Shown here piece by piece: positions 20,214 through 58,611 of a stretch of DNA of 64,000 bases (the first letter of the stretch is position 1; every line of letters begins with the position of its first letter). The notes under the pieces are model-generated. The model did not search any database. It was not told the DNA's origin and was given only the letters and a program-made list of their open reading frames with translations. The stretch comes from an uncultured Acidobacteriota bacterium (GTDB taxonomy: Bacteria > Acidobacteriota > Vicinamibacteria > Vicinamibacterales > 2-12-FULL-66-21): the NCBI GenBank assembly GCA_963787175.1, contig CAWBCA010000012.1:5033-69032 (forward strand), read 5' to 3'. A program made the position numbers and the translations under genes.

Positions 20214-20226
20214 GAGGAGCCATCGG

Positions 20227-22439: not shown

Positions 22440-22482
22440 CCGGTCTGGGCCCGCCGCTTCGCGGGTCCCCGCCTCCATACCC

Positions 22483-25243: not shown

Positions 25244-26119
25244 CCGTCAGGGCCAGGAGGACGGGGGCGTACACCAGCAGCCCTGGAGTGCCGATCTCGA
25301 CTTGCGCAAACAGCGCCGCGATGTCGTCCGGGTGCAGGCGGATGCAGCCATGCGTGGCGGCGCTGTAGATGCTGGAAGTGGCGGGCGTTCCGTGTATTCC
25401 GATTGATGGGAGACTCAGGCGCAGGAAGTAGTGGCCCAGCGGATTCTCTGGACCTGGCGGCACCACCGTGACGACGCGCTTTCTCGAGCGGCGCATCTCT
25501 GCCTGAATCGAAACGGGGACGTCCCAGGTGGGGTGCGCCTCCTTGTCGGCTATGGTGAACGCACCGAGCGGTGTGGCCCAATCCCGAGTCCTACAGCGAT
25601 GCGATAGGCGGACGGGAGGGTGCCGGCGCGGCGGGAAAACAGCATGCGCTGCGGAACATTGATCACCAGCGGGACGTCGGCGAGCGCCGGGGGCACGATG
25701 TGCCGGGTGTCGATGCGCAGCACCTCTCCCTCCGTGAGCGGGGCGGCTGCCTTGCGCCCGCTGTCAGCGGTGATGGTCGACGAGTCGACACCATATCTGG
25801 CCCCGAGTTGTCGGAGGGTCTCGCCGCCGACGACCTGGTGCTTGATGACTCGTCCGACCACGAGCGACGACACGATTCCGTCTTCAGACTGCGCGAGCAC
25901 CGCTACCCTGGCTGGGGTCGCGAGTATGAGCATCAGCGGCAGAAGCCACAGTCGTGGATCCTGACCGTGCCATCTCGCGAGCGTTGGCCCATCATGAGCG
26001 CCGGTCCTGCCGTGGAGGCCGACGGACCGTGGGCCGCCACAAGCGCCCAGATTGATGTCCCGGTTCAACGGCGCCGCAGCCGCGGGGATCGATACGGTGG
26101 GCCTTTCAACGGTGTGCAT
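25026..26119 (-). pseudogene. LysM-domain L,D-transpeptidase (YkuD), frameshift as assembled
   Basis: LysM: HQVVGGETLRQLGARYGV. After ..AYRIAVG (~25580) the product continues in another frame: WATPLGAFTIADKEAHPTWDVP...GIHGTPATSSIYSAATHGCIRL (YkuD catalytic H...C). The N-terminal start (26119) is tentative. Confidence 0.75.
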
Positions 26120-26507
26120 GGCCGGTTCCAGGGCTGAACTCCGAGACTGCGACGCGACCCTTGAAGTCACCACGCCAGAGCCGTGCCACGTCCGCGCGAG
26201 ATCTGACCGGAGTGAATGCGCCGTCTCAGTGCCAGGATGCCCTTCCAACCTAGATGCGTCGGGGTATTTCTGCGCTCCGCGGGGAATATTCCCCGCCGGC
26301 GCCAGCCTGCTGCAGACGGCGGCTTGCATCACGGCTTGATTCACGTCGGGTACTCTGCGGGTACGACTGTTGCCTTTCACGCCATCGACATCTCGAAGGA
26401 GCCCAGTCGCTCGTGCCCCGGGAACCACAGAGGTACGAAGCGACCTTCAAGGGGCGTCCGAGGGCACGCTTGGGCGGATCGCTCGTTACCAGCCTGCGAG
26501 GTCTGCG

Positions 26508-26854: not shown

Positions 26855-26993
26855 CTCGCTGCGCACACACGGTGTCGTGTATGAGCAGCTCGCGTCGGCT
26901 GCCGACGTTCAGAACGGCCGGGTGCTTCCTGTCGCGTGTGCTGACGTGACACGGGCGGGAGGGCCAATTTCAGGCTCACAAGGGAGAACCAAG

Positions 26994-27593
26994 ATGTCGC
27001 GCACCTCGTTGCTGGCATCCTTCGTCCATCTGGTCAGCGTGGCGACGCTTGCCGCTCAGTCTCCTTCATCCGGCACGCCGTGGCCGATCCGCGACGCCCC
27101 GCCGGCGTTGCACACGGTGATCTCGCGGGCGGATCTGATCATCGTGACGATGCATGAGGCCCTGCTGCGTGAGTTGCAGGAAGGACTGGCGCGCGGCGGT
27201 CCGGCCTCCGCAATCATGTCGTGCCACGTGGACGCGGTTGGTGTGAGTCAGCGGCTCGCGCGCGGCGAAGGCATTGCTGCAGGGCGGACGAGCGATCGCC
27301 TCCGCAACCCGACGAACGCGCCACGACCCTGGGCGGCGGCCTTGGTGAAGGCCAACGCCGGGCGGCGCATGCGTGATGTGGAGGGATTCGCCGTCGACCT
27401 TGGCGACAAAGTGGGTGTCCTCCGCCCGATCGCACAAACCAGCACGTGTATCAGCTGCCATGGGCCTGTCGAGCGGATGAGTCCTACGATGCGGCAGCTG
27501 TTGGCGGAGCGGTATCCGGCCGATCGCGCGGTCGGCTTCGAGGAAGGCCAGATCCGCGGCTGGTACTGGGTGGAGATGCCGAAGCCGCGCTGA
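26994..27593 (+). CDS. secreted heme-c protein (DUF3365/Tll0287-like)
   Basis: ATG at 26994 after AGGGAG. Signal peptide present. Single CISCHG heme-c motif near the C-terminus. Family name is from memory. Confidence 0.6.
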   Translation: MSRTSLLASFVHLVSVATLAAQSPSSGTPWPIRDAPPALHTVISRADLIIVTMHEALLRELQEGLARGGPASAIMSCHVDAVGVSQRLARGEGIAAGRTSDRLRNPTNAPRPWAAALVKANAGRRMRDVEGFAVDLGDKVGVLRPIAQTSTCISCHGPVERMSPTMRQLLAERYPADRAVGFEEGQIRGWYWVEMPKPR

Positions 27594-27924: not shown

Positions 27925-28143
27925 ATGCGCAGCGAAAGCCGCACCGAAGGCCTCGTCATGATGGCACCGGCTGCCGACGAGGATCGTGTCCTCCTTGCCG
28001 GCCCTCACTCTCGAACCAAGGAGCTTCGACTGGTACTCCAGGTCGCTGCAGAGTTCATCGGAGGGTTCCGAACGCTGCATTTCGTCGGCCCTTGTGTCAC
28101 GGTGTTCGGATCGGGGCGCTTCCCTGCCTCTCACCGCTACTAC
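27925..28143 (+). pseudogene. N-terminal fragment of a LOG/TIGR00730-family Rossmann protein
   Basis: ELRLVLQVAAEFIGGFRTLHFVGPCVTVFGSGRFPASHRYY matches the family N-terminus (..aEfveGF..l...gp.vtvFGSaR....h.yY). The fragment then stops, and the next gene starts at 28171. Confidence 0.5.
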
Positions 28144-28170
28144 GTCCGGCACATGCGAAAGGAGATCGCG

Positions 28171-28731
28171 ATGGCTCGAATCCTGATTCTCTACGGCACG
28201 ACCGAGGGACAGACTGCAAAGATCGCCAACGCCATTGCCCAATCCCTGCGCGCGCAGGGTGACGGCGTCGAGGTGGTGGCCGCCGGCGCAGGGGCACCGG
28301 ACCCCGCCGGCTTTGCGGGCGTGCTCGTCGCTGCCTCGGTTCACGGCGGTCGGTATCAAAAGCCGGTCGAGCGGTGGGTTCGAACGCACGCTCCGCAACT
28401 GGCCCGTCGGCCCACGGCGTTCGTATCCGTCAGCCTAGGGGTGCTGCAGCACGAACCAAAGGTGCAGCAGGAGGTGGCGGCGATCGTGGATCGCTTCCTG
28501 ATCGCCACCGGCTGGACGCCCGCCGTGACCAAGAGCGTGGCTGGCGCGCTGGTATACACGAGATACAACTGGATCAAGCGCTGGGTGATGCGCCGCATCG
28601 CCAAGGCTGCCGGCGGGGAGACCGACACCTCGAAAGACTATCGGTACACGGATTGGCAGCAGGTCGAGGAGCTGGCCCGAACATTCAGCAGGATGGTGCG
28701 CGAGCGGTCCGTGCAGGCACCTGCTGCGTGA
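28171..28731 (+). CDS. flavodoxin-domain protein (HemG-like)
   Basis: MARILILYGTTEGQTAKIANAIA... with GGAG upstream. ~186 aa. Confidence 0.8.
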   Translation: MARILILYGTTEGQTAKIANAIAQSLRAQGDGVEVVAAGAGAPDPAGFAGVLVAASVHGGRYQKPVERWVRTHAPQLARRPTAFVSVSLGVLQHEPKVQQEVAAIVDRFLIATGWTPAVTKSVAGALVYTRYNWIKRWVMRRIAKAAGGETDTSKDYRYTDWQQVEELARTFSRMVRERSVQAPAA

Positions 28732-30451: not shown

Positions 30452-30602
30452 CACTGGTCGTCCCGCTGCCAGAGCGATCGCGTGCCGGCGCGGCAGAATC
30501 ACGAGAATTTTTCCTCACGGGGGGCGAAATTCTACCCAAGGCTGCTGTCGCTCGGCTGCCCGGAAGGCACGCGTTCTCGTGCACGAGGGCAGACTTCGGG
30601 TA

Positions 30603-30618
30603 TGGCAATGACGTTGCT
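30603..30618 (+). promoter_or_regulatory. candidate sigma-54 promoter (TGGCAA-N5-TTGCT)
   Basis: tggcaatgacgttgct has one mismatch to TGGCAC-N5-TTGCW. It lies ~75 nt upstream of ppsA ATG 30693. Confidence 0.65.
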
Positions 30619-30692
30619 GTCGTCGATCAACGGTGCTGCACTCGCCTGCCCGCGCCGGGCACAGCGATTAGGCGATCAGACGAGGAACTGCC

Positions 30693-33117
30693 ATGACCAA
30701 TCCAGCCGCAACCCCCACCTACGTCCTGGACTTCTCCGATATCACGCTTCAGGACGTCGGCCGCGTCGGAGGCAAGAACGCCTCGCTGGGTGAGATGTTC
30801 AGAACGCTGAGGCCGGCTGGCGTGGGCGTGCTCGACGGATTCGCGACGACGGCGGACGCCTACTGGCGGCTGCTCGGCACCGGCGACCTGAAGGCCACGC
30901 TTCGAACGGCGTTCGCGTCTCTCGATCCCGAGGATCTCGCGCAACTGGCGGTCTGCGGACACGCTGCACGCACGGCCGTTCTCGAAGCGGCGCTGCCTGA
31001 CGAGTTGCGCGCCGCAATCCTTGCGGCCTACGACAGGCTGTGCGCCCGGCTCGGACGTGAGCCGGAGATGGCGGTCCGTTCCTCGGCGACGGCGGAAGAC
31101 CTCCCGGAGGCGTCGTTCGCGGGCGCTGGCGAAACGTTCCTCAACGTACGGGGACGGGAGGCGCTGCTGAGGGCGGTGCAGGCCTGCTGCTCGGCTCTCT
31201 TCACCGATCGTGCGATCAGCTACCGGGCGCGCCTCGGCTACGACCAGCTCTCCGTCGCCCTCTCGGTCGGTGTGCTGCCCATGGTCCGGTCCGACCGGGC
31301 CAGCTCTGGCGTGATCTTCACGCTCGACCCCGAATCAGGATTCCGTGATGTCGTCACGGTCTCCGGCGCGTACGGGCTCGGCGAGTTCGTCGTCCAGGGA
31401 GTCGTCACGCCCGACGAATGGACGGTCTTCAAGCCAACCCTTGCGACAGGCCATCAAGCCATCGTCGGGCGCCGGCTGGGCACGAAAGAGGTGCGCCTCG
31501 TGTATGCCGACGGCAGCAAGGGGACCAGGAGCGAACCCGTGCCTCCAGAGGACCGCGCGCGTTATTGTCTGTCGGACAACGAGGTGCTGAAACTCGCCCG
31601 ATGGGCGGCCCTTATCGAAGACCATTACTCCACGGCTGCAGGTCATCCACAACCCATGGACATCGAGTGGGCGAAGGATGGTGTCACCGGCGACCTGGTG
31701 ATCGTCCAGGCCCGGCCGGAGACGGTGCACTCCCAGAAACCACGCGGAGGCGCCGCCGAGGCGTACCGGCTGACGGCAGCGCCGGGCACACCGCGCGTCA
31801 CGGGGCAGGCCGTTGGCGAGAAGATCGCGGTCGGCCGCGTGCGTGTCGTCCGAAGTATCGATTCGCTCGGGCGCGTCCAGCCGGGCGAGGTCCTCGTGGC
31901 GGAGATGACCGATCCCGACTGGGAACCCGTCATGCGCCGCGTCGCCGCCATTGTCACCGACAAGGGGGGTCGCACGGCACATGCGGCGATTGTGTCCAGG
32001 GAGTTCGGCCTCGCCTGCATCGTCGGCACAGGCGTCGGCACAAGCCGGCTTCGCGATGGCGACGAGGTGACCGTCTCCTGCGCCGAAGGGGCCGAGGGCC
32101 ACGTCTACGCCGGCGCCCTGCCGTACGAGATCGATCGCATCGACGCCGCGGCTGTCGCGCAGACGCGCACGAAGGTCATGCTGATCGTCGGAGACCCGAG
32201 CCGTGCGTTCGCCCTCGCCAGCGTCCCTAACGCCGGCGTGGGGCTGGCCCGGACCGAGTTCATCGTCACGAACCACATCGGCATCCATCCAATGGCCTTG
32301 GCGCGTTACCCGGCCTTGTCCGACCCGGCCGCCGTGGCCGCGATTGCCAAGAAAATCGGGGCCGAGGACGCCAGAGCCTTTTTCGTGCAGCGGTTCAGCG
32401 AGGGGGTCGCACGCATCGCGGCGGCGTTCTATCCCAAGCCGGTGATCGTTCGCACGAGCGACTTCAAGAACCAACGAATACGTTCGGCTCCTCGGTGGTT
32501 GCGAGTTCGAGCCTGACGAGGAAAACCCGATGATCGGCTTCCGGGGCGCGTCCCGGTACGTACCGACACACGGTACGCCGATGGGTTTGCACTCGAATGC
32601 GCGGCTCTGCGGCGGGTCCGGCTCGACATGGGACTCACCAACGTCAAGGTCATGATCCCGTTCTGCCGGACGGTCGCAGAGGGGCGTCGCGTGTTGGGAG
32701 ACGATGGCTGCCAATGGACTGCGCCAGGGGGAACAGGGCCTCGAGATCTACGCGATGTGCGAGGTGCCCTCGAACGCGGTGCTGGCGGAACAGTTCCTAG
32801 AGGTGTTCGACGGCTTCTCGATCGGATCGAACGATCTGACGCAGCTGACGCTGGGGCTCGATCGCGATTCCGGCACCGTGGCGCATCTGTTCGACGAGCG
32901 GGACGACGCGGTGCGCTGGCTGATTGCGCGGGCCATCCACGCCGCTCACAAGCTTGGAAAGACGATCGGGATTTGCGGGCAGGCACCGTCCGACTACCCG
33001 GAGTTCGCGGTGTGGCTGACGCAGCAAGGTATCGACTCCATCTCCCTCAGCCCCGACGTGGCCATCGCGACGGCCACACGCGTCGCGGCTGCCGAACGCG
33101 AGCTGGTGTCCCGATGA
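30693..33117 (+). pseudogene. ppsA: phosphoenolpyruvate synthase (pyruvate, water dikinase), three frame breaks in the last quarter as assembled
   Basis: VGGKNASLGEM, PMDIEWAKDG, TDKGGRTAHAAIVSREFG (phospho-His region) and ARTEFIV. After ..RTSDFK (~32469, extra a) the product continues as [30 protein letters not shown] shift at ~32565 gives [44 protein letters not shown] shift at ~32702 (extra c) gives [23 protein letters not shown]...GSNDLTQL... Confidence 0.9.
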
Positions 33118-33390
33118 TCCCGGCTTGCCGAACCGAGTGCCAGCTGTCCTCGCCGCCCGGCGTTCATGGTGCGCGCCCGGGGCATTTTGCCGACCAACAA
33201 TGCGACCTGAGTTCGACCGCCGCTCGGACCGCCCGTGCGGCGACGAACGTCCAGGTGATCGCCAATTTCCCACACGCACATGCCGTGAGGCACAATCAGG
33301 CTCCAGACCTGTCCTGCGCGTGGACTGGGCGACCGCAGAAAGGCCGTCCAGTTTCTGGCACCAGAACACAGCTGGGTTCGCGATCACACT

Positions 33391-34749
33391 ATGGCCAAAG
33401 CCACAATCCTCGTCGTTGATGATGAAGCGCTGATTCGGTGGTCTCTTGCGGAGCGCCTGAAGGCGGAAGGCTATGACGTGCTGGAGGCGGACACCGGGCG
33501 GGGCGCTCTGGAACGGCTTCCGGAGGGCGTCGACCTGGTCCTGCTCGACTATCGGCTCCCCGACACCGACGGCGTCACCATCCTGCGCAAGATGAAGGAG
33601 TTCGACCAGGACATCCTGGTCATTCTCCTGACCGCGTATGCCAGCGTGGAAACCGCCGTCGAGGCGATGAAGCTGGGCGCCTATCATTTCGCCAACAAGC
33701 CGTTCAACCTCGACGAGGTCGCGGCGACCGTCGAGCGGGCGCTGGAGACGACCCGGCTGCGCCGCGAGGTACGGCAACTCCGTACGAGTGCGGCGCGTCC
33801 CTACAGCCTCGACCGCATCGTCGGCGCGTCTCCGGCCATGACCACGCTGCGGCAACTCGTCGCCCGTGTCGCCAGCAGCCCGGCGTCGACAGTGCTGTTG
33901 ACTGGTGAGAGCGGAACCGGCAAGGACCTGGTCGCGAAGGTGATCCATTACGGCAGCGACCGGGCCGCCAGGGCGTTCATGAACATCACGTGCTCCGCGC
34001 TCCCCGAGCAGCTCCTGGAGAGCGAGCTGTTCGGGCACGAGCGTGGCGCCTTCACCGATGCACGGCTGCAGAAGAAGGGCCTGCTCGAAACGGCCAGCGG
34101 TGGCACCGTCTTCCTCGACGAGATCGGCGAAATGACCCCGGCCCTCCAGGCGAAGCTGCTGCGGTTTCTCGAGGAGAAAAGCTTCAAGCGGGTGGGCGGC
34201 GCCAGCGACATCCGCGTGGACGTGCGGGTGATCGCCGCGACCAATCGCGACCTTCAGGAAGCCGTCGCCAAGCACCAGTTCCGGGCCGATCTGTTCTACC
34301 GGCTCAACGTGCTCCCCCTGCCCCTGCCGCCCCTCCGTCAGCATCCAGAAGACATCCCCGCGCTGGTCGAGTTCTTCATCGATGGTTTCAATACGGAGTT
34401 CAGGAAGCGGGTGCTGGGCGCGACGCCGGCGGCCCACGCCGTGCTCCAGCGCTACGGATGGCCAGGTAACGTACGCGAGCTCCGCAACCTCGTCGAACGT
34501 GCCATGCTCCTATCTGATGCCGACCGGCTCGATGCGCGAGACTTCGCGTCGCTCAACACCACTACCGCCGCGGGCGACGGGTTCGAGCTACCCTCCACCG
34601 GCGTCGATCTCGAGAAGCTGGAGCGAAGTCTGGTCATTCAGGCGCTGCAACGCAGCGGGGGGAACCAGACTCGCGCTGGAGCGCTGCTCGGTCTGAACAG
34701 GGACCAGATTCGCTACCGGATAGAGAAGTTCTCCCTCAACACCGCCTGA
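33391..34749 (+). CDS. sigma-54-dependent response regulator (NtrC family: REC + AAA+ + Fis-type HTH)
   Basis: REC: [11 protein letters not shown]...[13 protein letters not shown]. Walker [15 protein letters not shown] loop (variant of GAFTGA). [18 protein letters not shown] tail [23 protein letters not shown]. Confidence 0.95.
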
Positions 34750-34937
34750 TTGCCCCTCAGCGGGAGCTGTGTCGGATCGGGCTTCTGACTGGCGGCCTTA
34801 ATGGTCCGCTTGTGCGCTGTCTTCGTTGCGGGTTGTTCTGCCCGCCGGCGCGACATTCGCGCTGCCGGTCACGGCGGTGCGCCCGAACAGAGAGCGTCGC
34901 GGCAGCCGAAAGAGGCCGTTCTGCAGAGCCGACGAGG

Positions 34938-35405
34938 TCAGGCGGCATCTGCCGCTGCGGGGTTCGCATGGACCGTCAGCACAGGACAGGGCGCGAGGCG
35001 CACGACCCGCTCGGCCACGCTGCCCAGGAGCACGCGATTCCAGCCACACCGGCCGTGCGTGCCACACACAATCAGGTCAACGCCATGAGCCTCCGCATAC
35101 TCGAGGATCTGTTCGCTGGGGTCGCCCCACGCGGTCGCCACGACAACGCGTAGATTGCGCCACTCTTCCAACGAGAGATAGTCCGTCAGCCGATCCTGTG
35201 CCTCAGCCTGCAGCCGTTCCACGGTCTCAATGAACTGCGCGGCCGGAACGTAGCCGGACCACGGCTCGCCCAGCGGCTCGGTCACCACGTGAAAGACATG
35301 CAGCGACGCGCCGAACGTGGTCGCCAGCGCTCGAGCGCGCTCCAATGCCGCACGAGCGGCCTCGCTGAAATCCATCGCCACGAGCACGGTTCTGAGAGCG
35401 ATCAT
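34938..35405 (-). CDS. universal stress protein
   Basis: MIALRTVLVAMDFSEAARAALE...LHVFHVV...DLIVCGTHGRCGWNRVLLGSVAERVVRLAPCPVLTV. Confidence 0.9.
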   Translation of the reverse strand: MIALRTVLVAMDFSEAARAALERARALATTFGASLHVFHVVTEPLGEPWSGYVPAAQFIETVERLQAEAQDRLTDYLSLEEWRNLRVVVATAWGDPSEQILEYAEAHGVDLIVCGTHGRCGWNRVLLGSVAERVVRLAPCPVLTVHANPAAADAA

Positions 35406-35475
35406 GACGTCGCCTCCTCTTGCCGGGCTGCTGCCTCAAGGATGTGGAGGCTGGCCGCCCGGTGCCTCAGCGATC

Positions 35476-35490
35476 GCAACGGCTGTACCA
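35476..35490 (-). promoter_or_regulatory. candidate sigma-54 promoter (TGGTAC-N5-TTGC)
   Basis: Plus-strand gcaacggctgtacca, ~70 nt upstream of usp ATG 35405. One mismatch in the -24 box. Confidence 0.45.
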
Positions 35491-35638
35491 GCGGAAACGG
35501 CCGGTCATTCAAGACAGGCGTAGCCGCCGTACCGAGAGTGCCCTCGAGCACCGCGAACTATTCCGCAGCACGCCGGAAGAATCACCTTCGGCAAGTTCCC
35601 TCACGAGCCTGATTTCCCAGCGTACGCGGTAGCGCGGA

Positions 35639-35654
35639 GGGCACGACTGTTGCC
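35639..35654 (+). promoter_or_regulatory. candidate sigma-54 promoter (GGGCAC-N5-TTGCC)
   Basis: gggcacgactgttgcc, ~150 nt upstream of the kinase ORF start 35806. Divergent from the 35476 motif. Confidence 0.5.
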
Positions 35655-35805
35655 ATCTCAGGCCTCGAGTGCCGCTGGTTCCTGGGAGCCACGCTGGAGG
35701 TTGCGATGATTGCGCTTACACAGATACCCCTCGCCCCCGGACTTCGGCAAACTGAGCGAGAGTTCGTGCACCCGGACACGGCAGTAGCCGCGGCGCACGT
35801 CTGAC

Positions 35806-37137
35806 ATGGAGCTCCTGCAACGACTTGGCGCGGCGCAGACTGCCGCGAAGCGATCCGCGGTCGGATTGACACCGCCACTGACGTCCACCTTCTGCCACAG
35901 CCGCGGACGTGATCTTCTCCTCGTCGCGGCGGTGCTGACGCTGCTGCTCTGGCTCGGCACGCCCCTGAGGACGCCCGGCTCGCACGTGGCGCCGTTCGCC
36001 GGTTTGTGGGCGGCCTCCGGGCTGCTTGGTGTCTGGAGCTGGAGGTACACGCGGCGCGCCCTCGAGCCGCCGCACGCAGCCAGAGGGGTGGCGGACTCGC
36101 TGGAAACGCTTCAGGAGGTCCGGTCCGCGCTGGATCAGGCCGCCATCGTCGCCACCACAGATCACCGCGGAACCATCATGTCGGTCAACGATCGGTTCTG
36201 CGCGATATCCGGTTACTCGCGCGAGGAGCTGGTCGGGCAAAACCACCGCATCATCAACTCCGGCTATCACCCATCGACGTTCTTTGCCGACCTATGGAGG
36301 ACGATTGGGCGTGGAAGCGTCTGGCGCGGGGAGGTGCGCAACCGCGCGAAGGACGGGTCTCTCTACTGGGTGGACACGACGATCGTGCCGTTCTTGGATC
36401 AGGGCGGGAAACCGCGCCAGTATCTCGCCATTCACAGCGACATTACCGTCCGCAAGGATGCTGAGGCGCAGCTTCGCAGCCAGGCGGCCCTTGCGCACCT
36501 TGGCCAACTCGCCGCCGTGGTCGCACACGAAGTGCGCAACCCCTTGGCAGGCCTCCGCGCGTCTCTGCAGGTGCTGGATGGCCGGTGCTCCAACGAGCTT
36601 TCAGCGCGACAGGTCATCGGGGCCATGATCCAGCGCATTGATGAACTGAACGAGAAACTCGGCGATCTGTTGCTCTATGCGCAGCCGAGGCCCGCGCGAT
36701 TGCAGGCTGTGGATGTGCGATCGATCGCGCTGGACGCGGCCGCCGCCGCTCGCGCAGCCATGGGTGAGGCTCACCCGCCCGTCCCCGTGCTCGGCCAACG
36801 GACCGTCGCTCGTGCCGATCCCGACATGCTCCGCGCGGCCGTGCTGAACTTGACGCTGAATGCATGTCAGGCCGCCGCACGCGCCGGGGTCGAGCTCCAG
36901 GTCGAGGGAGACGAGCGTGTCTGCCGCATCTCCGTGCGTGACCGCGGGCCTGGCATCCCGGCCGACCTGCGGGATCGGTTGTTCGAGCCGTTCTTCACCA
37001 CTCGCCCGGGCGGCACGGGTTTAGGACTTGTTGTCGCCAGGCGTCTGCTCGACCTCCAGGGAGGCGCGGTGGCATTGAAAGACCATCCGGAGGGGGGCAC
37101 GGTGGCCGCGGTCACCCTGCCGGCAGCACCAGAATAG
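35806..37137 (+). CDS. membrane-anchored PAS-domain sensor histidine kinase
   Basis: Two N-terminal hydrophobic segments. PAS (TDHRGTIMSVNDRFCAISGYSREELVGQNH...). H-box VAHEVRNPLAGL. N/G boxes (RDRGPGIP, GGTGLGL). Confidence 0.85.
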   Translation: MELLQRLGAAQTAAKRSAVGLTPPLTSTFCHSRGRDLLLVAAVLTLLLWLGTPLRTPGSHVAPFAGLWAASGLLGVWSWRYTRRALEPPHAARGVADSLETLQEVRSALDQAAIVATTDHRGTIMSVNDRFCAISGYSREELVGQNHRIINSGYHPSTFFADLWRTIGRGSVWRGEVRNRAKDGSLYWVDTTIVPFLDQGGKPRQYLAIHSDITVRKDAEAQLRSQAALAHLGQLAAVVAHEVRNPLAGLRASLQVLDGRCSNELSARQVIGAMIQRIDELNEKLGDLLLYAQPRPARLQAVDVRSIALDAAAAARAAMGEAHPPVPVLGQRTVARADPDMLRAAVLNLTLNACQAAARAGVELQVEGDERVCRISVRDRGPGIPADLRDRLFEPFFTTRPGGTGLGLVVARRLLDLQGGAVALKDHPEGGTVAAVTLPAAPE

Positions 37138-37213
37138 CTCCGGACCGGCGGGAAACCTAGCGCGCTCGTCGCACCATGTCTGTTGAGGAATGTGTGACGA
37201 CTGATCGTGACGG

Positions 37214-38653
37214 TCAGGCTGGCAGCTGCACGGTCACCGTCGTGCCGCCACCCGGCGGGCACGACACGCTGATCGTGCCGCGATGCGCCTCGACGAGGCG
37301 CTTGGCGGTCGGAAGCCCCAGGCCGGAGCCGCGAGACTTGGTGGTGAAGAAGGGCAGAAAGATTTTGTCACGCATCTCGGCGGGTATGCCTGGGCCGCGA
37401 TCGATGACGGCGATCTGGCACGTGCCGTCCACCGCCCCGACTTCTACCTGCAGCGTGCCGGCGTCGTTCATGGCATGCGCGCCATTCACGATGAGGTTCT
37501 CGAACACGATGCGGAGCAGGTCAGCGTCGGCCAGGATCGGCGGGTGCGAGCCACGGACCTCCACATGCAAGCCTGCGAGGGCGGGATTCCGGCTGAGCAG
37601 GTCGGCCGTGAGCCTGACGAGTGTCTCAATCTCCACAGGAGCCGACTTCGGCCGGGGCGGACGGGCAAAGAGCAGCAGGTCCTGCATCAATCCGTTCAGC
37701 CCGTCTATGCGCGCCACAATCTCCTGAACGATGGCGGTGTCACTGCTCTCCTTGGGCAGCCGGGCACCAACGACCTGGACCGCACCCCGCACGCCTGCGA
37801 GAGGATTCCTTACCTCGTGAGCGATGACGGCGGCCATCTCGCCCAGCCTGGCCAGGGCCGCCTGCTCCCGGAGCTGCGCCTCGAGGCGCACGCGCGTCGT
37901 CAGGTCGTGGAGAATCCCCGAAAACCGACGTTCCTGCCCGATCTTCATTTCCCCAACGGCGAGGTGGGCGGGAAACGTCGTCCCGTCCTTTCGTAAGCCG
38001 GTGACCTCGCGGCCGATCCCGATGATCCGTGGGACGTCCGTAGACAGATAGCGGGCGATGTAGCTGTCGTGCTCCTCGCGGTGTGGGGAGGGCATCAGGA
38101 GGCTCACGTTACGGCCGATTACCTCCGACGCCTCATATCCGAACATCCGCCCCGCACTCGGGTTGAACTCTTCGATCCGACCCTGCGCATCGATGACGAT
38201 GATGCCGTCGACCGCCGAGTCGAATACGGCGTGCCAGCGCGCCTCGCTGACCCGGCGCGCAGCCTCCGCCTGTTTCTGTTGCGTGATGTCATGCGCAGTC
38301 GCCGAGGCGCCAATCACACGCCCGCTCGCGTCACATACGGGCGCAACCGTCAGCGACATCTCGATCAGTTCGCCGTCCTTCCTGCGGCGCAGCGTGTCGT
38401 AGGGACCGACGCGCTCTCCCGCCGCAACGCGCCGGATCACGCCCGGAAGCTCGTCGGCGCGATCAGCGGGAATGAGGATTGAGACTGATCGTCCGGTGAT
38501 GTCAGGCCCGGAATAGCCGTAAAGGCGTTCGGCACTCCTGTTCCAGGTCAGAACGACACCGTCCAGATCCGTGCCGATGACGGCGTCGGCGGACGAATCG
38601 AACAAGGCCCCGAGAAAGGCCGCCGCGTCGTCGTTGGGCGTAAAGGCGGACAT
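37214..38653 (-). CDS. soluble double-PAS sensor histidine kinase; second PAS is FixL-like (heme-PAS)
   Basis: PAS1: AVIGTDLDGVVLTWNRSAERLYGY. PAS2: IIVIDAQGRIEEFNPSAGRMFGYEASEVIGRNVSLLMPSPHREEHDSYIARYLSTDVPRIIGIGREVTGLRKDGTTFPAHLAVGEM. H-box IAHEVRNPLAGV. ATP-lid IDRGPGIP..GSGLGL. Confidence 0.9.
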   Translation of the reverse strand: MSAFTPNDDAAAFLGALFDSSADAVIGTDLDGVVLTWNRSAERLYGYSGPDITGRSVSILIPADRADELPGVIRRVAAGERVGPYDTLRRRKDGELIEMSLTVAPVCDASGRVIGASATAHDITQQKQAEAARRVSEARWHAVFDSAVDGIIVIDAQGRIEEFNPSAGRMFGYEASEVIGRNVSLLMPSPHREEHDSYIARYLSTDVPRIIGIGREVTGLRKDGTTFPAHLAVGEMKIGQERRFSGILHDLTTRVRLEAQLREQAALARLGEMAAVIAHEVRNPLAGVRGAVQVVGARLPKESSDTAIVQEIVARIDGLNGLMQDLLLFARPPRPKSAPVEIETLVRLTADLLSRNPALAGLHVEVRGSHPPILADADLLRIVFENLIVNGAHAMNDAGTLQVEVGAVDGTCQIAVIDRGPGIPAEMRDKIFLPFFTTKSRGSGLGLPTAKRLVEAHRGTISVSCPPGGGTTVTVQLPA

Positions 38654-38820
38654 GAGAGGCGCGCAATCCGGCGTCGGACGGACAACGGCATTCTAGCCCG
38701 AGAGTGGTAAGGCTGTCCCTCTGGAGAAAGGAACGATGGGGGGAGCCTTCGGAGCGAGCGGCTGATCGCTTCTCACGAGTTCGGCCGCCACCTGTGCCTC
38801 GCCGCCAAGCTGGTCGAGTG

Positions 38821-40332
38821 TCATCTTGCGAGCGTCCGAGCGGTCCCGCCAGTGACTAGCTTCATCCGTTGGCTCATGTGCGCCTGCAAATAGGCGCCAG
38901 CGTTCCGCAGCACCTGCTCTACCGACGGCGAGGGGTCAAGACCGTGCCACTCACCTCCCGATACGCCCTGCCTGTGCTGCATCCGGACGACGTCGGCGTC
39001 GGCATCCGACGCGCGTGCTCTCGCTGATTGACGCGTGTGAGCAATGTCGGTTCGGGTGCCTCCAGCCACAGAGAGATGAACGGGACGCGTGCGAAGGCCG
39101 CGACCTGCGCAATGGTCTGCCGGTCTGCTTCCCGGCCGAACACCGCGTCCACGATGACGCTGTGACCTGCTCTCAGGATCTCGGCGGCGCGGGCGGCCGA
39201 TGTGGTGTAGACCCGCTCGGACAGGTGGGGCGCTTACCCTTGGTCCGAGTCGCTGGCGTGGTGACACCCCACAGAGGCGCTTGCGGATCTCATCGCTGCG
39301 GAGCACTACGGCGCCAGGCACGGCGCCAACATACGGGGCCAGGCCGGCCGCCACCGTGGACTTCCCTGAGCCAGACAGCCCACCAATGGCGACAAGGCAG
39401 GGGCGCGGAGGGTGCAGCATCTCTTCCGACATTGCGAGGTATTGGCGCGCCAGCTGCTCTGCTTCTCGTTGCGCACCGCTCTCTGTCTGAAGCCGCGCGG
39501 AGGTCGCGCTCGTCTTCGCCCGGACGGCAGCCCGGCACGACAGAAACAATGGGAGTAGCGCGACGCCACCCGGGTCCGCAGCCGCGTCGTAGTACCCGTT
39601 CCATACCGCGTTGGCGTGCCGGGGTAAGCCGCGACGCCAGAGGTCCATGAGCAGGAAGGCGAGGTCGTAGTAGGTGTCGGTGCAGGAGATCTCGTCGTTG
39701 AACTCCACTCCGTCGAACAGCGTGGGCTGACCCTCCAGCAGGACGATGTTGCGCAGGTGCAGATCTCCGTGACATTCCCGCACGTAGCCCGACTGCCGAC
39801 GGCTGTCCAACAACCCTGCCACCCGCTCGAGCTCGCACTGAGCTGACTCGGTCAGACGCCGACACGCAGCCGGCTCGAGGCAAGCCGTGCCGAATTCCTT
39901 GAACCCCGCCACATTGCCATCGATGACCCAGCCCATTCCGGCCTTGCCGCCATGATCCGATCTTGGGTCCGCCGACTTGTGAAATGCGGCGATGGCCTCG
40001 GCCAGCGGCGCCATCAGCGCGAGGTCGAGCTGTCCGGCTGCGGCACGACGGTCGAAGAGCGCGTCCTGAGGAAAGCGATTCATCTCGACCACCCAGTCGA
40101 GGGGTGCGCCTCGGCCCCCGAAGGCCAGCGAGCCGTCCGGTTCCCGGGTGACCGGCACGACGGCCCGGTACAGCGTTGGCGCCGTACGTCGGTTCAGGCG
40201 AAGCTCCGCTTCGCAGAAGGCCTGACGCTGCATCGACGTAGAGAAGTCGACGTAGTCGAATCGCACGGCGTGTTTTGATCCGTTCGACCTGCTGCTGGCG
40301 TAGGTGGTCGGCGAGGCCAGAAACTCGATCAC
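38821..40332 (-). pseudogene. bifunctional aminoglycoside-phosphotransferase-fold / P-loop kinase protein (Rv2004c-like), two compensating frame breaks as assembled
   Basis: APH fold: ECHGDLHLRNIVL..FDGVEFND. P-loop GGLSGSGKST. Between ~39230 and ~39015 the conserved text runs in another frame (..LSERVYTTSAARAAEILRAGHSVIVDAVFGREADRQTIAQVAAFARVPFISLWLEAP..). It then returns to the first frame (DASDADADVVRMQ..). Confidence 0.8.
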
Positions 40333-40573
40333 GGCTGTCTGTCCTCGGTGATCATCGTTGCCTCAAACTTCCTCCCGCGCAGCATCAAACGCCTTACAGC
40401 GCCCGGTGCTTCATCGCTGCCGACGAGGGACCGGCGCTGGCGCCTTGTGCCAACGCCCCGCTCGTCAGCTCTGGCTCGTCGACGAGGACTCTCGCCGCGA
40501 ACAGCACGCGATCGCTGTAGCCGCAAGCGTTGGAGCCGGCAGAACGTCCAGCGCGTCTCCCTTCCCAACGAGT

Positions 40574-41521
40574 TCACCCTGCATGACTGATCACTTGTTC
40601 ACGCCTCGCCGGCTGTGGGCGCACCACATGGCCGGGGGGGAGTGCCAGCACCAGATTCCTGGAGAGACACAGGAAACGATAGGTGACGGAGCCCATTCGC
40701 GGACCGATGAGAGGTGATCCATGAAGACCGACCAACGTCAGTCCCGCCTGGCGGTCGTGGGCAATCTTGGCGAGCTCCTCCGCGGGATCGCCATACGCCA
40801 CAAGCGCTTCGGAGTGGAGGCGCGGTGGAATCGTTGCCACCAACTCACTCAGCCGGTCTTCTGCGATGGCACGCTGGTCGGCCTCGAGCGTGATGACGTG
40901 CCGCCGCCCGGCCATGGGCGTCTTGATCGGTTCGATCACGTATGCCAGAAGCATCGGCACGTTCAGGGCCTCGGCGACCGCACGCGCGACCTGTGTCTGA
41001 TGCAGCGAGTCGGCCGACAGATCAACGGGCACCAACACCCGGCGTACCAGATGCTGTGCCTGCTCGACGGACAGCGGCCGCGGCACCACTGGCGGGGTGA
41101 TGAGCACCGGCTGCGATGTCTCGCGAAGGACGCGCTCCGTCGTGGAGCCAAAGAACAGCTTCCGCATCCCTGTGAGCCCCTGTGTGCTGATCACAATGAG
41201 GCTACATGAGCGCTCCTCGCAGACGCGCAGGATCTCGACTGCGGGCTTCCCAACTGCCACCTCGTATTCGAACGCGGCCGGGGGGCTCGAGTCATGAGCA
41301 CCGGCCCTGCGGGCAAAGTCCGCCAGTTCCTGGGTGCAGGCGCCCGGATCCCAGACGATGCCGGTGCCGAGGTCGACCGCATTTGCCAGGAGCGGGTGTG
41401 CGACCGTCAGCACCAGCACACGCGCGCCGAACCGGGTACCGATGGCGGCCGCATAGCGGAGGGCGCCAGCGGACGCTTCCGAGAAGTCCACCGGGCACAG
41501 GATCAAAGGACTGTCGTTCAT
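40574..41521 (-). CDS. tandem (double-domain) universal stress protein
   Basis: MNDSPLILCPVDFSEAS...SLIVISTQGLTGMRKLFFGSTTERVLRETSQPVLI, then a second domain RVLVPVDLSADS...LTLVGLHGSPLIGPRMGSVTYRFLCLSRNLVLAL. Start is M at 41521 or 41533. Confidence 0.85.
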   Translation of the reverse strand: MNDSPLILCPVDFSEASAGALRYAAAIGTRFGARVLVLTVAHPLLANAVDLGTGIVWDPGACTQELADFARRAGAHDSSPPAAFEYEVAVGKPAVEILRVCEERSCSLIVISTQGLTGMRKLFFGSTTERVLRETSQPVLITPPVVPRPLSVEQAQHLVRRVLVPVDLSADSLHQTQVARAVAEALNVPMLLAYVIEPIKTPMAGRRHVITLEADQRAIAEDRLSELVATIPPRLHSEALVAYGDPAEELAKIAHDRQAGLTLVGLHGSPLIGPRMGSVTYRFLCLSRNLVLALPPGHVVRPQPARREQVISHAG

Positions 41522-41605
41522 GATGGCCTCCATCTCAGACACGTTGGCGCACGCTGCTCCCGCAACCCCGCCGGAGTCACGCCGGTTCGGGGGCACCAGA
41601 GTCGG

Positions 41606-42085
41606 TCAGGCGGCACGGTGAGTCTGTGGGGTCGATGCCTCGTCGGGGCGGATCGTCAGCACGGGACACGGTGCAGCGCGGACAACGCGCTCGGCTACAC
41701 TCCCCATCAACAGCCGTGCGATGGCCCGGCGACCGTGCGTGCCCATGACCACCAGATCGATGTTCTTCTGCTCCGCCAGATAGTCCAGGATCTCCTCGGC
41801 CGGCGCGCCTGTGCGGCACACGAGCACGACGTTGTACCGTTCCCGCTCCTCGTCCGTTAACGACGTCTCGAGCAGCTTCAGGGCATCGCGCTCCAGTTGG
41901 GCAAACAGGTCCGGCGGAGGCGCATAGAACTCCATGTACCCGCCGCGCACGAAGGGATTCTCGGTGGCGTGCAGGAGGTGGAGCGAGGCGCCGAACGCGT
42001 CCGCCAGGCCGCAGGCGTAGCGGAGCGCCTGCTTCGATGCCGCACTGAAATCGGTGGGGACGAGGATGTTCTTGATGCGAGTCAT
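41606..42085 (-). CDS. universal stress protein
   Basis: MTRIKNILVPTDFSAASKQALRYA...LHLLHATE...DLVVMGTHGRRAIARLLMGSVAERVVRAAPCPVLTI. Close paralogue of 44887..45366. Confidence 0.9.
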   Translation of the reverse strand: MTRIKNILVPTDFSAASKQALRYACGLADAFGASLHLLHATENPFVRGGYMEFYAPPPDLFAQLERDALKLLETSLTDEERERYNVVLVCRTGAPAEEILDYLAEQKNIDLVVMGTHGRRAIARLLMGSVAERVVRAAPCPVLTIRPDEASTPQTHRAA

Positions 42086-42210: not shown

Positions 42211-42226
42211 CGCAACCTTAGTGCCA
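42211..42226 (-). promoter_or_regulatory. candidate sigma-54 promoter (TGGCAC-N5-TTGCG, perfect core)
   Basis: Plus-strand cgcaaccttagtgcca is the reverse complement of TGGCACtaaggTTGCG. It lies ~130 nt upstream of usp ATG 42085, in the right orientation for the usp / tandem-usp / APH-P-loop gene string. Confidence 0.7.
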
Positions 42227-42428
42227 TTGCGAAACGAGTGCGCTGCTGGGGATCCGCGCGCTCGGCGTCCGGAGAACCCGGGAAGAAATTCGCATGCGCG
42301 AGGAAATTGTCGCGCTTGCTCCAGCGCAGCACGTCGGGCTTACCAGCGACGCCACCCTCAGTGACGCGCTATAGGAGTCCAAGCGCCTGCGGCATCAGGG
42401 TTGCTCGATAGCGTGTCGGAGCACGATC

Positions 42429-45399: not shown

Positions 45400-46510
45400 C
45401 TACGACACCTGCGTGGCGGCCGTGGCATCGACGCCGCCGACCAGAGGGAGCCCTGCGGGATAGATCGCGACCTTCAGCACGCCGGCATCCTGCCGGCTGA
45501 AGAGATCGAAGGCGATCGGCAGTTGTTCCAGGGTGAAGTCGTGTGTCACGAGAGACGTGAGGTCCAGGCGATCGTGGATCACCATCGCCATCAACCGCCG
45601 CATCCGTTCCTTGCCGCCGGGGCAGAGCGTGGTAACGATCCGTTGGTCGCCAAGGCCGGCGTGCAGCGCCTCATACGGCGCGGTCAGCTTGCCCGAGTAG
45701 ACACCGAGGCTCGACAGCGTGCCGCCCGCGCGCGTGGAGCGGAGCGCGGCTTCGAAGGTCTCCTGCCGGCCGAGCGCCTCAATCGCGACGTCCACACCGC
45801 GGCCCTCGGTGAGCCGCTTGATCTCCGCGACCACGTCCTGGGCGGCGGGATCCAGCGTGACCGTCGCCCCAAACCGGCGCGACATGGCCCGGCGGTCGGG
45901 GAGCATGTCCACGCCAATGATCAGACCTGCGCCGCGCAGGCGCGCGCCCACGGTCGCGCACAGCCCGATCGGGCCCTGTGCGAACACCGCCACGCTGTCT
46001 CCGACCTTGACCTGACCGCTCTCGGCGCCCGAGATGCCCGTGGAGGCAATATCGGGCAGCATGAGTACCTGCTGGTCCGTCAGGCCGTCGGGCACGAGGG
46101 CGAGGTTGGCCCTCGCGTCCGGAATCAGCAGGTACTCTGCCCAGGCACCGTCGATGGTGTTGCCGAACCGCCAGCCGCCCATCGGACCACGACACTGCGA
46201 ATGCACGCCGTTCAGGCAATAGAAGCACTGACCACAGGGCGTAATGGCACCGACAATCACCCGCTGCCCGACGGCGTACTCGTCGTCGAGACCCTCGCCG
46301 AGCTCCGCGATGATGCCGACCGGCTCGTGCCCGAGTATCAGGCCCGGTCGGACCGGGATACTCCCCTTTGACGATATGCACGTCGGTTCCGCAGATGGTC
46401 GTGGCCGTCACGCGAATGACCGCCTGGCCAGCGCGCGGGTGTGGGCGCGGGACCTCCTCGACGCGTATATCGTTGACACCGTGGAACACGACCGCCTGCA
46501 TGGTTTCCAT
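45400..46510 (-). pseudogene. zinc-dependent alcohol dehydrogenase (MDR family), one frameshift as assembled
   Basis: METMQAVVFHGVNDIRVEEVPRPHP..ICGTDVHIVKGEYP | (extra base ~46356) VRPGLILGHEPVGIIAELG...CGQCFYCLNG..VFAQGPIGL... The usp at 45366 follows 33 nt downstream. Confidence 0.85.
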
Positions 46511-46570: not shown

Positions 46571-46585
46571 GCAACGCCGATGCCA
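46571..46585 (-). promoter_or_regulatory. candidate sigma-54 promoter (TGGCAT-N5-TTGCC)
   Basis: Plus-strand gcaacgccgatgcca, ~60 nt upstream of adh ATG 46510. One mismatch to the consensus. Confidence 0.6.
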
Positions 46586-46873
46586 GCCGCGAACGCCGAC
46601 ACGGGCAGGGATTTCAGGCGCGCGATGCGGAGAGAGACGCGGAAGAATCCCCGCCCGTGCGGAAGAACACGCCCGCTGCCCGCGGGACCGTGGGGCGTAG
46701 CAGAGCGGCGTGACAGGGCCGGCGGCTTCGCACCTGAGGCCCCGTGCGGCGCTGGTTGGAGAGCCCGTCGAAACACCCAACGCGTCAGAGGCGTTCCTCG
46801 GGAGTGGGAGCGGCATGACGCCCATCACCAGGGCCGTGCCTGACGCGCACGGCCCTGAGGCGAGGTGTCGATC

Positions 46874-58585: not shown

Positions 58586-58611
58586 TCCCGGAAGAGGCTG
58601 AATTTAGAGTT

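Follow-up and report, generated by a model that had tools for sequence, protein, structure and literature searches.

A FixL-type heme-PAS domain on an NtrB-class histidine kinase near a sigma-54 regulator: a candidate oxygen-sensing stress circuit in an uncultured Vicinamibacterales-like acidobacterium

Introduction

The closest described relatives of the sensor treated here are the FixL kinases of B. japonicum (BjFixL) and S. meliloti (SmFixL), in whose heme-PAS domain, by BjFixL numbering, His200 is the proximal ligand of the heme iron, Arg206 and His214 hold the propionates, Ile215 and Ile216 belong to the FG loop on the distal side, and Arg220 swings onto bound O2. Within the DosS/DosT-DosR system of M. 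tuberculosis the work is divided between two kinases, one a gas sensor and the other a redox sensor. The soil bacteria M. xanthus (NmpRSTU) and Anaeromyxobacter (AfGcHK) have a heme O2 sensor kinase whose pathway ends in an NtrC-like activator, and the NmpRSTU activator, which also regulates itself, works at sigma-54 promoters through paired enhancer sites before genes for universal stress proteins (Usp), for CBS proteins and for the use of oxygen (PMC6211767, PMC11841059). NtrY-NtrX of Brucella and Rhodobacter, finally, joins a heme-PAS kinase to an NtrC-family regulator in low-oxygen physiology (PMC7240162). Here we analyse a histidine kinase gene, called HK2, and its surroundings in a stretch of 64,000 nucleotides (nt) from an uncultured acidobacterium (GenBank assembly GCA_963787175.1, contig CAWBCA010000012.1, positions 5,033 to 69,032); this whole stretch is referred to as the window, and all coordinates are counted from its first letter.

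Acidobacteriota of the Vicinamibacterales type are abundant in soil and rhizosphere and almost entirely uncultured, and little is known about how they live with the steep and changing gradients of oxygen in soil. The reading that we favour, with moderate confidence, is that HK2 is a FixL-type heme sensor kinase that at low O2 would act through a sigma-54 activator on stress-survival genes.

A soluble kinase with a FixL-type heme-PAS domain

HK2 combines two PAS domains with a histidine kinase transmitter (Table 1). The initial annotation had assigned a FixL-like peptide and a candidate proximal His to its open reading frame (ORF); the 71-residue peptide is found without change as HK2 residues 182-252 (nt 37898-38110), the ORF coordinates and the His195 codon likewise proved exact in the translation, with Arg201 at +6, and the single correction concerns the strand, which is minus. 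The maximum Kyte-Doolittle hydropathy over 19 residues is 1.19; HK2 therefore has no membrane segment and is soluble. Short contigs from independent rhizosphere metagenomes, which cover 30600-38700 at 2-6x in pieces of 150-540 nt, show zero differences from HK2 over 38033-38574 (including the His195 codon) and 37228-37706, so that the sequence is not an assembly artefact; the locus occurs in rhizosphere and soil metagenomes. Residues 28-264 align with the PAS-A and PAS-B domains of BjFixL (8js5), and PAS1, which has no His at the site equivalent to the proximal His, is likely the counterpart of FixL PAS-A.

When PAS2 was compared with all PDB sequences by phmmer, it matched the heme domains of BjFixL (1dp6/1drm, E=6e-37) and SmFixL (1d06, E=4e-34), followed as the next class by the heme-PAS domain of E. 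coli DosP (EcDos) at E ~1e-13, while ordinary LOV and PAS domains did no better than 1e-5. The alignment with BjFixL extends over 125 residues without a gap, 62 of them identical (49.6%), and across the heme domain the BjFixL number of a residue is that of HK2 plus five. Equivalent residues (HK2/BjFixL) are His195/His200, Arg201/Arg206, Arg209/His214, Ile210-Ile211/Ile215-Ile216, Arg215/Arg220, Leu231/Leu236, Val233/Ile238 and Asp250-Leu251-Thr252/Asp255-Leu256-Thr257, and the distal-pocket positions of BjFixL (Val188, Leu191, Met192, Leu236, Ile238) correspond to Val183, Leu186, Met187, Leu231 and Val233. The FixL likeness proposed in the initial annotation is thus borne out, and the residues on which it turned, the proximal His and the Arg following it, align like Arg215 with their counterparts in BjFixL; the alignment with SmFixL is gapless too.

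These positions are also conserved within the family. In an alignment of HK2 with 48 relatives (n=49), His195, Arg215, Leu186, Met187, Pro190 and Tyr198 are invariant, Ile210 and Ile211 are kept in 47 and 48 sequences, Leu231 and Val233 in 47-48, and the five distal-pocket residues taken together in 45-49; the Arg201 position is Arg in 42, and the Arg209 position, a His in BjFixL, is Lys or Arg in 47. An AlphaFold2 model of residues 135-263 has a mean predicted local distance difference test score (pLDDT) of 86 and a predicted template modelling (pTM) score of 0.78, places His195 within a predicted helix (model residues 57-71), and is of low pLDDT only over residues 205-214, the FG loop. A structure prediction had been named as a check when the domain was first noticed, and the predicted fold does match FixL: FixL heme domains take all of the top 20 places in a Foldseek search of the PDB, with template modelling (TM) scores of 0.8-0.9 and root-mean-square deviations of 1.7-2.1 A, EcDos follows at a TM score of about 0.75-0.8, and the best 28 matches are, without exception, heme-binding PAS domains. 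The FixL structures among them include the O2, carbon monoxide (CO) and nitric oxide (NO) forms of the heme.

Could PAS2 nevertheless be merely FixL-like, either a degenerate domain or one that holds some other ligand? No specific support was found for this, apart from variation in a few relatives at the site of Arg206. One such case does count against the heme assignment: the closest homologue, P0066 (locus L001, 10001-11449), which is 78% identical to HK2, reads HDRYMAAL in place of HDSYIARY and, while keeping the proximal His, has no equivalents of Arg206 and Tyr207. Set against this are the gapless identity with BjFixL, the purifying selection that has preserved the proximal His and the whole pocket in the 49 sequences, and the uniformly heme-binding character of the best structural matches; we give a heme-free PAS2 hardly any credence. 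Judged by its sequence, PAS2 is a FixL-type heme-PAS domain, with the proximal His, the switch Arg, the FG-loop Ile pair, the basic residues for the propionates and the distal pocket all in place, and it very probably binds heme in the manner of FixL.

An NtrB-class transmitter and a shortened linker

Does the resemblance to FixL extend to the rest of the protein? The NCBIfam equivalog model of FixL (NF041777) gives HK2 251 bits, where the cut-off is 850, and covers only residues 111-293. The best full-length NCBIfam model is AtoS, which covers residues 142-478 with 274 bits; since this lies below the equivalog cut-off of 646, HK2 is a member of the class and not an AtoS or ZraS orthologue. 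The transmitter alone (residues 253-479) has ZraS as its best PDB match (125 bits, E=2e-35), as against 59 bits for the B. japonicum FixL transmitter present in YF1-type chimeras, and its H-box, AHEVRNPLAG, fits the AHE[IV][RK]NPL type. By these comparisons HK2 joins a FixL-type sensor to a transmitter that belongs to the NtrB/AtoS/ZraS class. Kinases of this class serve sigma-54 enhancer-binding regulators.

It might be objected that JGI labels many relatives of HK2 'two-component system, LuxR family, sensor kinase FixL', and that HK2 could simply be an ordinary FixL orthologue with its FixJ encoded elsewhere in the genome. We hold this to be very improbable: the score against NF041777 is far below the cut-off and confined to the PAS region, the transmitter scores twice as high with ZraS as with FixL, and no FixJ-type regulator (a receiver with LuxR/GerE output) was found either in the window, by phmmer of the six-frame ORFs, or beside any of the 83 non-redundant related loci whose neighbourhoods were surveyed. 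Receiver ORFs of 205-267 amino acids beside some relatives were considered as FixJ-type and rejected, because they end right after the receiver and owe their extra length to a spurious N-terminal extension or an N-run. The earlier remark that no FixJ-like gene is present therefore holds for the window, where the single receiver ORF is part of a sigma-54 activator, and labels of the 'FixL, LuxR family' kind call for correction, since the FixJ output that they imply finds no support in this analysis.

The way in which sensor and transmitter are joined bears on the polarity of the kinase. From Thr252 of the DLT motif to His279, HK2 has 27 residues, exactly one heptad fewer than the 34 of BjFixL, a number that runs from Thr257 (taken from the alignment numbering) to His291, which we take to be the phospho-accepting His of BjFixL, consistent with His161 of YF1. 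Work on YF1 established that PAS-kinase linkers act as coiled coils, in which linkers whose lengths are seven residues apart give the same response and the addition of one residue inverts it (PMC6798134). With a linker one heptad shorter, the register should therefore be kept by this heptad rule, and by inference so should the polarity; HK2 would then be FixL-like in being off when O2 is bound and on in the deoxy form. A natural FixL sensor placed on another class of transmitter through a linker shorter by one heptad would amount to a natural experiment on PAS-to-kinase coupling.

The sigma-54 regulator, the second kinase and the neighbourhoods of related kinases

A phmmer survey of all six-frame ORFs found one receiver and two kinases in the 64-kb window. 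The receiver is that of the NtrC/AtoC-type regulator at 33391-34749, in whose sequence the acidic pocket, Asp53 and Lys103 can be read. The sigma-54 contact loop of this regulator (residues ~218-223) has the form GAFTDA, the canonical one being GAFTGA.

The other kinase, HK1, resembles in its residues 115-224 the flavin adenine dinucleotide (FAD)-binding PAS-A domain of Methylococcus capsulatus MmoS (3ewk, E=8e-44), and also NifL PAS1 (2gj3) and Aer. Over 343 residues it shares 37% identity with HK2, and the two have in common the H-box AHEVRNPLAG and a distance of 27 residues from the D-I/L-T motif to the phospho-accepting His. HK1 is thus probably a flavin (FAD-PAS) redox sensor with a transmitter of the same class, and, given both likenesses, the local module would bring together a gas sensor based on heme, a redox sensor based on flavin and a single regulator of the sigma-54 type.

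HK2 belongs to a large family, with more than 6,900 proteins at E<1e-10. Among GTDB species representatives it is found at 302 loci, almost all in metagenome-assembled genomes of Vicinamibacterales or Acidobacteriota and often as several paralogues per genome; because the closest kinase among these loci is 67% identical to HK2, the species of the window is not among the representatives. Of the best 120 homologues, 100 (within P0002-P0120; for example P0009, at residues 195 and 323) carry two tandem FixL-type heme-PAS motifs of the form H-D-x-Y-...-I-I-G-I-G-R, whereas HK2 has one heme-PAS domain after a non-heme PAS domain. A family of this size with tandem heme-PAS domains should be of use to heme-sensor biochemistry.

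What stands beside these kinases? A look-up of the exact HK2 sequence in a contig index gave no record, and the comparison of context was therefore made with homologues. In the census of 83 loci, a sigma-54 response regulator lies within 1 kb of the kinase in 19, of which 11 have both genes on one strand; when the whole of the fetched flank is considered, the number is 29. The association can be very close: in L007 and L030 only 4 nt separate the regulator from a kinase on the same strand, and L008, L019 and L024 have operons in the order regulator, kinase, stand-alone receiver. A stand-alone receiver is found within 300 nt in 31 of the 83 loci, in 27 of them downstream and on the same strand (for example L008 9505-9948, L019 9447-9953 and L010 9461-9904, all of the NtrC type), and a sigma-54 response regulator or a stand-alone receiver is present in 43. 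The stand-alone receivers and the regulator of the window have in common the NtrC-type alpha-1 motif DDExLIRWS[LI]AE, so both could be acceptors; those downstream of 27 kinases suggest a branched pathway or a phosphate sink. Whatever the neighbours, helix 1 of the dimerisation and histidine phosphotransfer (DHp) domain, GEMAAVIAHEV[KR]NPLAG[IV]RGA[IV]QVIG, is essentially invariant in the 83 kinases, HK2 included. From the neighbourhoods and the class of the transmitter we infer that the acceptors of the family would be NtrC-type receivers.

Orthologues of the window's regulator are themselves found with heme-PAS kinases. Proteins that score at least 750 bits against it directly adjoin such kinases in L030, L063, L068, L078, L081 and L082, usually with a kinase like HK1 as a third gene, and the triad of heme-PAS kinase, sigma-54 response regulator and FAD-PAS kinase recurs in L030, L063, L078, L081, L082, L083, L042, L001 and L003. 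Together with the ZraS/AtoS-like transmitter, these arrangements support the earlier suggestion that the output is a sigma-54 activator rather than FixJ. We lean towards the neighbouring regulator as an acceptor of HK2, with the phosphotransfer itself a prediction.

Several points pull the other way. The two genes lie 2.5 kb apart, with a Usp gene and HK1 between them and with HK2 convergent to HK1; the window is without the stand-alone receiver that 31 of the 83 relatives have close by, in place of a sigma-54 regulator or in addition to one, and the first acceptor, or even the sole one, could therefore be encoded in another part of the genome; and positions H+11 to H+13 of the DHp domain read AS L in HK1 and GA V in HK2, so that the two kinases need not share a partner. 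Sigma-54 activators without a receiver (ORFs of 345-494 amino acids) also recur near heme-PAS kinases, in L005, L008, L017, L023, L024, L044, L052, L058 and L072, so that these islands may be under the control of two or more enhancer-binding proteins. It is conceivable, then, that HK2 phosphorylates a stand-alone receiver or some other regulator outside the window while the neighbouring activator is served by HK1 alone. The frequency and orientation of stand-alone receivers among the relatives would fit this arrangement, as would the position of the regulator nearer to HK1, the three DHp helix-1 differences, and the fact that the sigma-54 promoter of HK1 faces away from the Usp gene adjoining the regulator; in M. 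xanthus, moreover, the heme kinase NmpU does not directly phosphorylate the NtrC-like output (PMC6211767). Yet the kinases that do lie within 1 kb of a sigma-54 regulator, some separated from it by 4 nt or joined with it and a receiver in one operon, have a DHp helix 1 identical to that of HK2, the shared alpha-1 motif leaves both kinds of receiver open to it, and the orthologues of the window's regulator adjoin heme-PAS kinases directly. We therefore rank an acceptor outside the window as a serious but unlikely alternative to the neighbouring regulator.

Predicted sigma-54 promoters and paired boxes

The window was scanned for TGGCAC-N5-TTGC with at most one mismatch. The yield by itself speaks against a sigma-54 regulon, since the 8 matches obtained compare with 4.8 expected and are not above chance (73 against 68 at two mismatches), and any information must therefore lie in their placement. 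Six of the 8 matches are non-coding and 20-250 nt upstream of a gene on the same strand, a situation that only 6.1% of positions satisfy (binomial p=1.3e-6); a seventh precedes a frameshifted alcohol dehydrogenase gene, at 60 nt from its true ATG (46510). All seven promoters (Table 1) have a pair of AT-rich boxes of the GGAA/TTCC type, 19-21 nt apart, and at six of the seven the proximal box is 52-71 nt upstream of the -24 element.

Some caution is due with regard to the boxes too, as they were first seen by eye and three of the promoters fail the strict pattern WWTTCCS. For this reason they were tested on other loci, at 176 sigma-54-like sites in 82 sequences. The top hexamers upstream of these sites were GGAATA (10.8-fold, p=2e-27), GGAAAA, GGGGAA and GCGGAA, and WWTTCCS boxes numbered 0.65 per site upstream as against 0.11 downstream and 0.10 in the background, with a sharp peak 60-100 nt upstream of the -24 element. 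With a window-free box matrix (consensus CGGGGAATATTCCGCGC), 7 of the 33 matches in the window fell within 200 nt of the seven promoters, where 4.4% were expected. A search of six upstream regions for 9-mers with one mismatch found nothing, and one for 8-mers a modest 6.4-fold enrichment of TTCTTCCG. The paired boxes are thus candidate binding sites for the neighbouring regulator or for another sigma-54 activator.

Two further approaches were dropped. Phylogenetic footprinting with L001 had no discriminating power, the intergenic DNA being 89% identical, and more distant GTDB loci were used instead; an intergenic filter that demanded stops in all six frames was too strict at 66% GC and kept only two of the seven window sites. 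Between 33000 and 42600, sigma-70 promoters (1 against 1.0 expected) and intrinsic terminators (3 against 3.7) were at chance level, and the -35/-10-like site at 38719-38690 upstream of HK2 is therefore not evidence of a separate promoter.

Strong matches to the box matrix (15.9-17.6 bits) also occur at three places that have no sigma-54 element with at most one mismatch: at 17117, upstream of ORF 17183-17845; at 48400, upstream of a DUF6064-BON gene, with a two-mismatch sigma-54 match at 48522; and at 49958-49994 (49958/49978), upstream of the GNAT/acyl-CoA synthetase gene. These are possible further members of the regulon.

Table 1. Coordinates of the kinases, the regulator, neighbouring genes and putative promoter elements in the 64-kb window (PWM, position weight matrix; aa, amino acids)
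Feature	Position	Strand	Remarks
HK2, soluble PAS / heme-PAS / HisKA / HATPase_c histidine kinase	37214-38653	minus	479 aa; ORF list, translation, Pfam
PAS1 of HK2, non-heme PAS, residues 16-123	38285-38608	minus	Pfam PAS
PAS2 of HK2, FixL-type heme-PAS by sequence, residues 139-252, ending in the DLT motif	37898-38239	minus	alignment, AlphaFold2 model, Foldseek; the span 37889-38236 of the initial annotation covers residues ~140-255
His195 codon, predicted proximal heme ligand (BjFixL His200)	38069-38071	minus	alignment
Arg201 codon, equivalent of BjFixL Arg206 (heme propionate partner)	38051-38053	minus	alignment
Arg215 codon, equivalent of BjFixL Arg220 (O2-switch residue)	38009-38011	minus	alignment
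Helical linker of HK2, residues 253-278, DLT motif to phospho-accepting His	37820-37897	minus	
HisKA/DHp of HK2, residues 270-331, H-box AHEVRNPL	37661-37846	minus	Pfam HisKA
His279 codon, phospho-accepting His of HK2	37817-37819	minus	
HATPase_c catalytic domain of HK2, residues 376-478	37220-37528	minus	Pfam E=8.7e-25
NtrC/AtoC-type response regulator: REC, sigma-54 AAA+, Fis-type helix-turn-helix	33391-34749	plus	proposed phospho-acceptor (Asp53); Pfam, NCBIfam
HK1, soluble PAS-HisKA-HATPase kinase, single PAS	35806-37137	plus	443 aa; convergent with HK2
Perfect -24/-12 element TGGCACTAAGGTTGC	42212-42226	minus	126 nt upstream of first Usp gene in the operon Usp, tandem Usp, APH/P-loop, HK2
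Candidate enhancer boxes GCGACAATTTCCTC / GCGAATTTCTTCCC	42280-42313	minus	spacing 20 nt; 53 nt upstream of -24
Putative sigma-54 promoter of Usp 34938-35405	35476-35490	minus	
Putative sigma-54 promoter of HK1	35639-35653	plus	
Box pair common to divergent promoters 35476/35639	35553-35586		symmetric between both; PWM 17.9 bits for box at 35552
Box pair; putative sigma-54 promoter	30503-30537; 30603-30617	plus	upstream of PEP synthase gene (30693-)
Putative sigma-54 promoter; box pair	46571-46585; 46639-46672	minus	upstream of Zn-alcohol dehydrogenase gene, true ATG 46510
Sigma-54-like promoter; box pair, perfect palindrome GGGGAATATTCCCC	26174-26188; 26260-26294	minus	upstream of ORF 25550-26068; PWM 19.6 bits
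Sigma-54-like promoter; box pair	14765-14779; 14897-14929	minus	upstream of P-type cation ATPase gene (11801-14703, split)
Usp gene between regulator and HK1	34938-35405	minus	Pfam Usp E=2.6e-36; own putative sigma-54 promoter
Genes upstream of HK2, presumed operon ending in HK2	38821-42085	minus	Usp 41606-42085; tandem Usp 40574-41596; APH-like + P-loop kinase fusion 38821-40332

Gene content of the island

The genes around the kinases form an island of about 11.8-52.9 kb, with six Usp genes, two BON-domain genes, norCBQD, genes for a Tll0287-like and a flavodoxin-like protein, and those for PEP synthase, alcohol dehydrogenase, a P-type cation ATPase and a GNAT/acyl-CoA synthetase. The kinases of relatives sit in similar company, among Usp, HSP20, CBS, BON, nitroreductase, erythromycin-esterase and PEP synthase genes, and the order Usp, tandem Usp, APH plus P-loop, kinase is found again in L001. 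The composition of the island recalls hypoxia and dormancy regulons and fits an oxygen input. Within the presumed HK2 operon, the 503-residue product of 38821-40332 unites an APH-like phosphotransferase with a P-loop kinase (AAA_33/Zeta-toxin-like); with the tandem Usp before it, it may resemble the Rv2005c-Rv2004c pair of M. tuberculosis. Rv2004c and Rv2005c are mentioned in the literature together with the DosR regulon, to which they reportedly belong.

Four genes, each an uninterrupted ORF in related loci, are split into two or three frames in the window, namely those for PEP synthase (30693-33419), the P-type ATPase (11801-14703), the Zn-alcohol dehydrogenase (45400-46510, with a frame change near codon 52) and the GNAT/acyl-CoA synthetase (50230-52907); these are either assembly indel errors or real pseudogenes. 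The Tll0287-like gene (26877-27593, plus strand) and the Flavodoxin_5 gene (27925-28731, plus strand) have the nor cluster on one side and the Usp/PEP synthase genes on the other, with a weak box (9.7 bits) at 27787. At 57358-58782 (plus strand) there is an ISL3-family transposase gene, which adjoins that of a 617-residue protein (59014-60867, minus strand) with an N-terminal OmpR-type winged helix (Trans_reg_C) and no receiver domain.

A proposed circuit and its signal

The favoured reading can be set out as a sequence of steps. By homology, the heme iron of HK2 would be held by His195 on the F-alpha helix and the propionates by Arg201 and Arg209, in a distal pocket lined by Ile210, Ile211, Leu231 and Val233, and Arg215 would swing in to hydrogen-bond bound O2. 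If FixL is the guide, the O2-bound form would be kinase-off and the deoxy form kinase-on, and at low O2 HK2 would phosphorylate an NtrC-type receiver, most likely at Asp53 of the activator encoded at 33391-34749. The activator might then bind paired boxes of the GGAA-N2-4-TTCC type 50-70 nt upstream of -24/-12 promoters and turn on the Usp genes, PEP synthase, alcohol dehydrogenase, the P-type ATPase and HK1, and also the operon of HK2 itself, which would create positive feedback, while HK1 would probably feed a redox signal into the same regulator.

Is oxygen the signal? A heme-bound PAS2 might in principle respond to NO or CO, or to the oxidation state of its iron, all the more as a complete-looking nitric oxide reductase cluster (19394-24498, plus strand), with a norC-like cytochrome c, a COX1-type norB, a CbbQ/NorQ ATPase and a VWA-domain NorD, lies 13 kb from HK2. 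FixL heme binds O2, CO and NO alike in crystals, and M. tuberculosis DosS has reportedly been argued to sense the redox state of its heme iron. The heme-PAS protein NtrY, too, has been described as a redox sensor (PMC7240162). However, Arg215, the equivalent of Arg220, is invariant, and the equivalents of Ile215 and Ile216 are kept, these being the residues that give FixL its O2-specific switching; neither pattern scans nor the box matrix found a sigma-54 promoter or box pair upstream of norC; and the island is dominated by Usp and other genes of a stress or hypoxia type, not by NO detoxification. We accordingly regard a signal other than O2 as improbable and consider O2, with somewhat more confidence than we place in the circuit as a whole, to be the physiological signal of HK2.

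A wider and more tentative reading, on which we would not quite wager evenly, concerns the lineage. Perhaps Vicinamibacterales of soil have rewired a FixL heme-PAS domain, usually in two tandem copies, onto an NtrB-class transmitter that, together with an MmoS-like flavin kinase, drives a sigma-54 regulator, often with a stand-alone receiver as a branch or sink, over an autoregulated, Usp-rich survival island. If so, hundreds of genomes would carry the circuit, in a lineage that ranks among the most abundant in soil. Even for this single locus the reading yields a concrete and testable circuit, with a heme O2 sensor, a flavin redox sensor, a sigma-54 activator, promoters, candidate boxes and target genes.

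Comparison with known systems

The sensor is of a kind already known. With BjFixL and SmFixL, HK2 shares a heme-PAS domain that is half identical to that of BjFixL (62 of 125 residues) and equivalent in its pocket residues, and with BjFixL also a soluble layout of PAS-A, heme-PAS-B and kinase in which a DLT motif is followed by a coiled-coil linker in heptad register. It differs from FixL in its ZraS/AtoS-like transmitter with the H-box HEVRNPL, in having no FixJ and likely NtrC-type acceptors instead, and in its host, an uncultured Vicinamibacterales-like acidobacterium and not a rhizobium. What is new is the architecture, widespread in an abundant and uncultured lineage of soil, in which the sensor, often in two copies, is combined with an NtrB-class transmitter, probable acceptors of the NtrC type, a sister kinase that is probably a flavin sensor, and a stress island that would be under autoregulated sigma-54 control. 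The reshuffling of PAS sensor domains is common; in the literature, the coverage of which was incomplete, no description was found of a FixL-type heme-PAS kinase with a sigma-54/NtrC regulator, nor of one in Acidobacteria or Vicinamibacter.

Other systems resemble the locus in part. EcDos has the same heme-PAS fold with a proximal His, at only ~25% identity to PAS2, and departs from it in Met distal ligation and in its output, a cyclic di-GMP phosphodiesterase. MmoS and NifL share FAD-PAS similarity with HK1, which differs in having only one PAS domain, joined to a transmitter like that of ZraS. NtrY was not among the matches of PAS2 in the PDB sequence search, in which a structure of its PAS domain may not be deposited; unlike HK2 it is a membrane protein with a HAMP domain, and it has been described as sensing the oxidation state of the heme iron (PMC7240162).

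The nearest functional precedent for a heme O2 kinase that acts through an NtrC-like regulator on a sigma-54 regulon is NmpRSTU, whose sensor, however, is a globin (protoglobin) and not a PAS domain, whose relay runs from NmpU through NmpS to NmpR with inverted logic, and whose enhancer consensus is GCGCA-N5-TGCGC where the window has GGAA/TTCC boxes. The closest analogue in logic is DosS/DosT-DosR, likewise with two soluble kinases, one regulator and a Usp-rich low-O2 regulon, although no parts are homologous: heme-GAF domains stand there in place of heme-PAS and FAD-PAS domains, and a regulator of the NarL/LuxR type in place of a sigma-54 enhancer-binding protein. Should the circuit proposed here prove real, it would be, after DosS/DosT-DosR and NmpRSTU, the third independently assembled hypoxia/dormancy circuit in which two sensors address one regulator.

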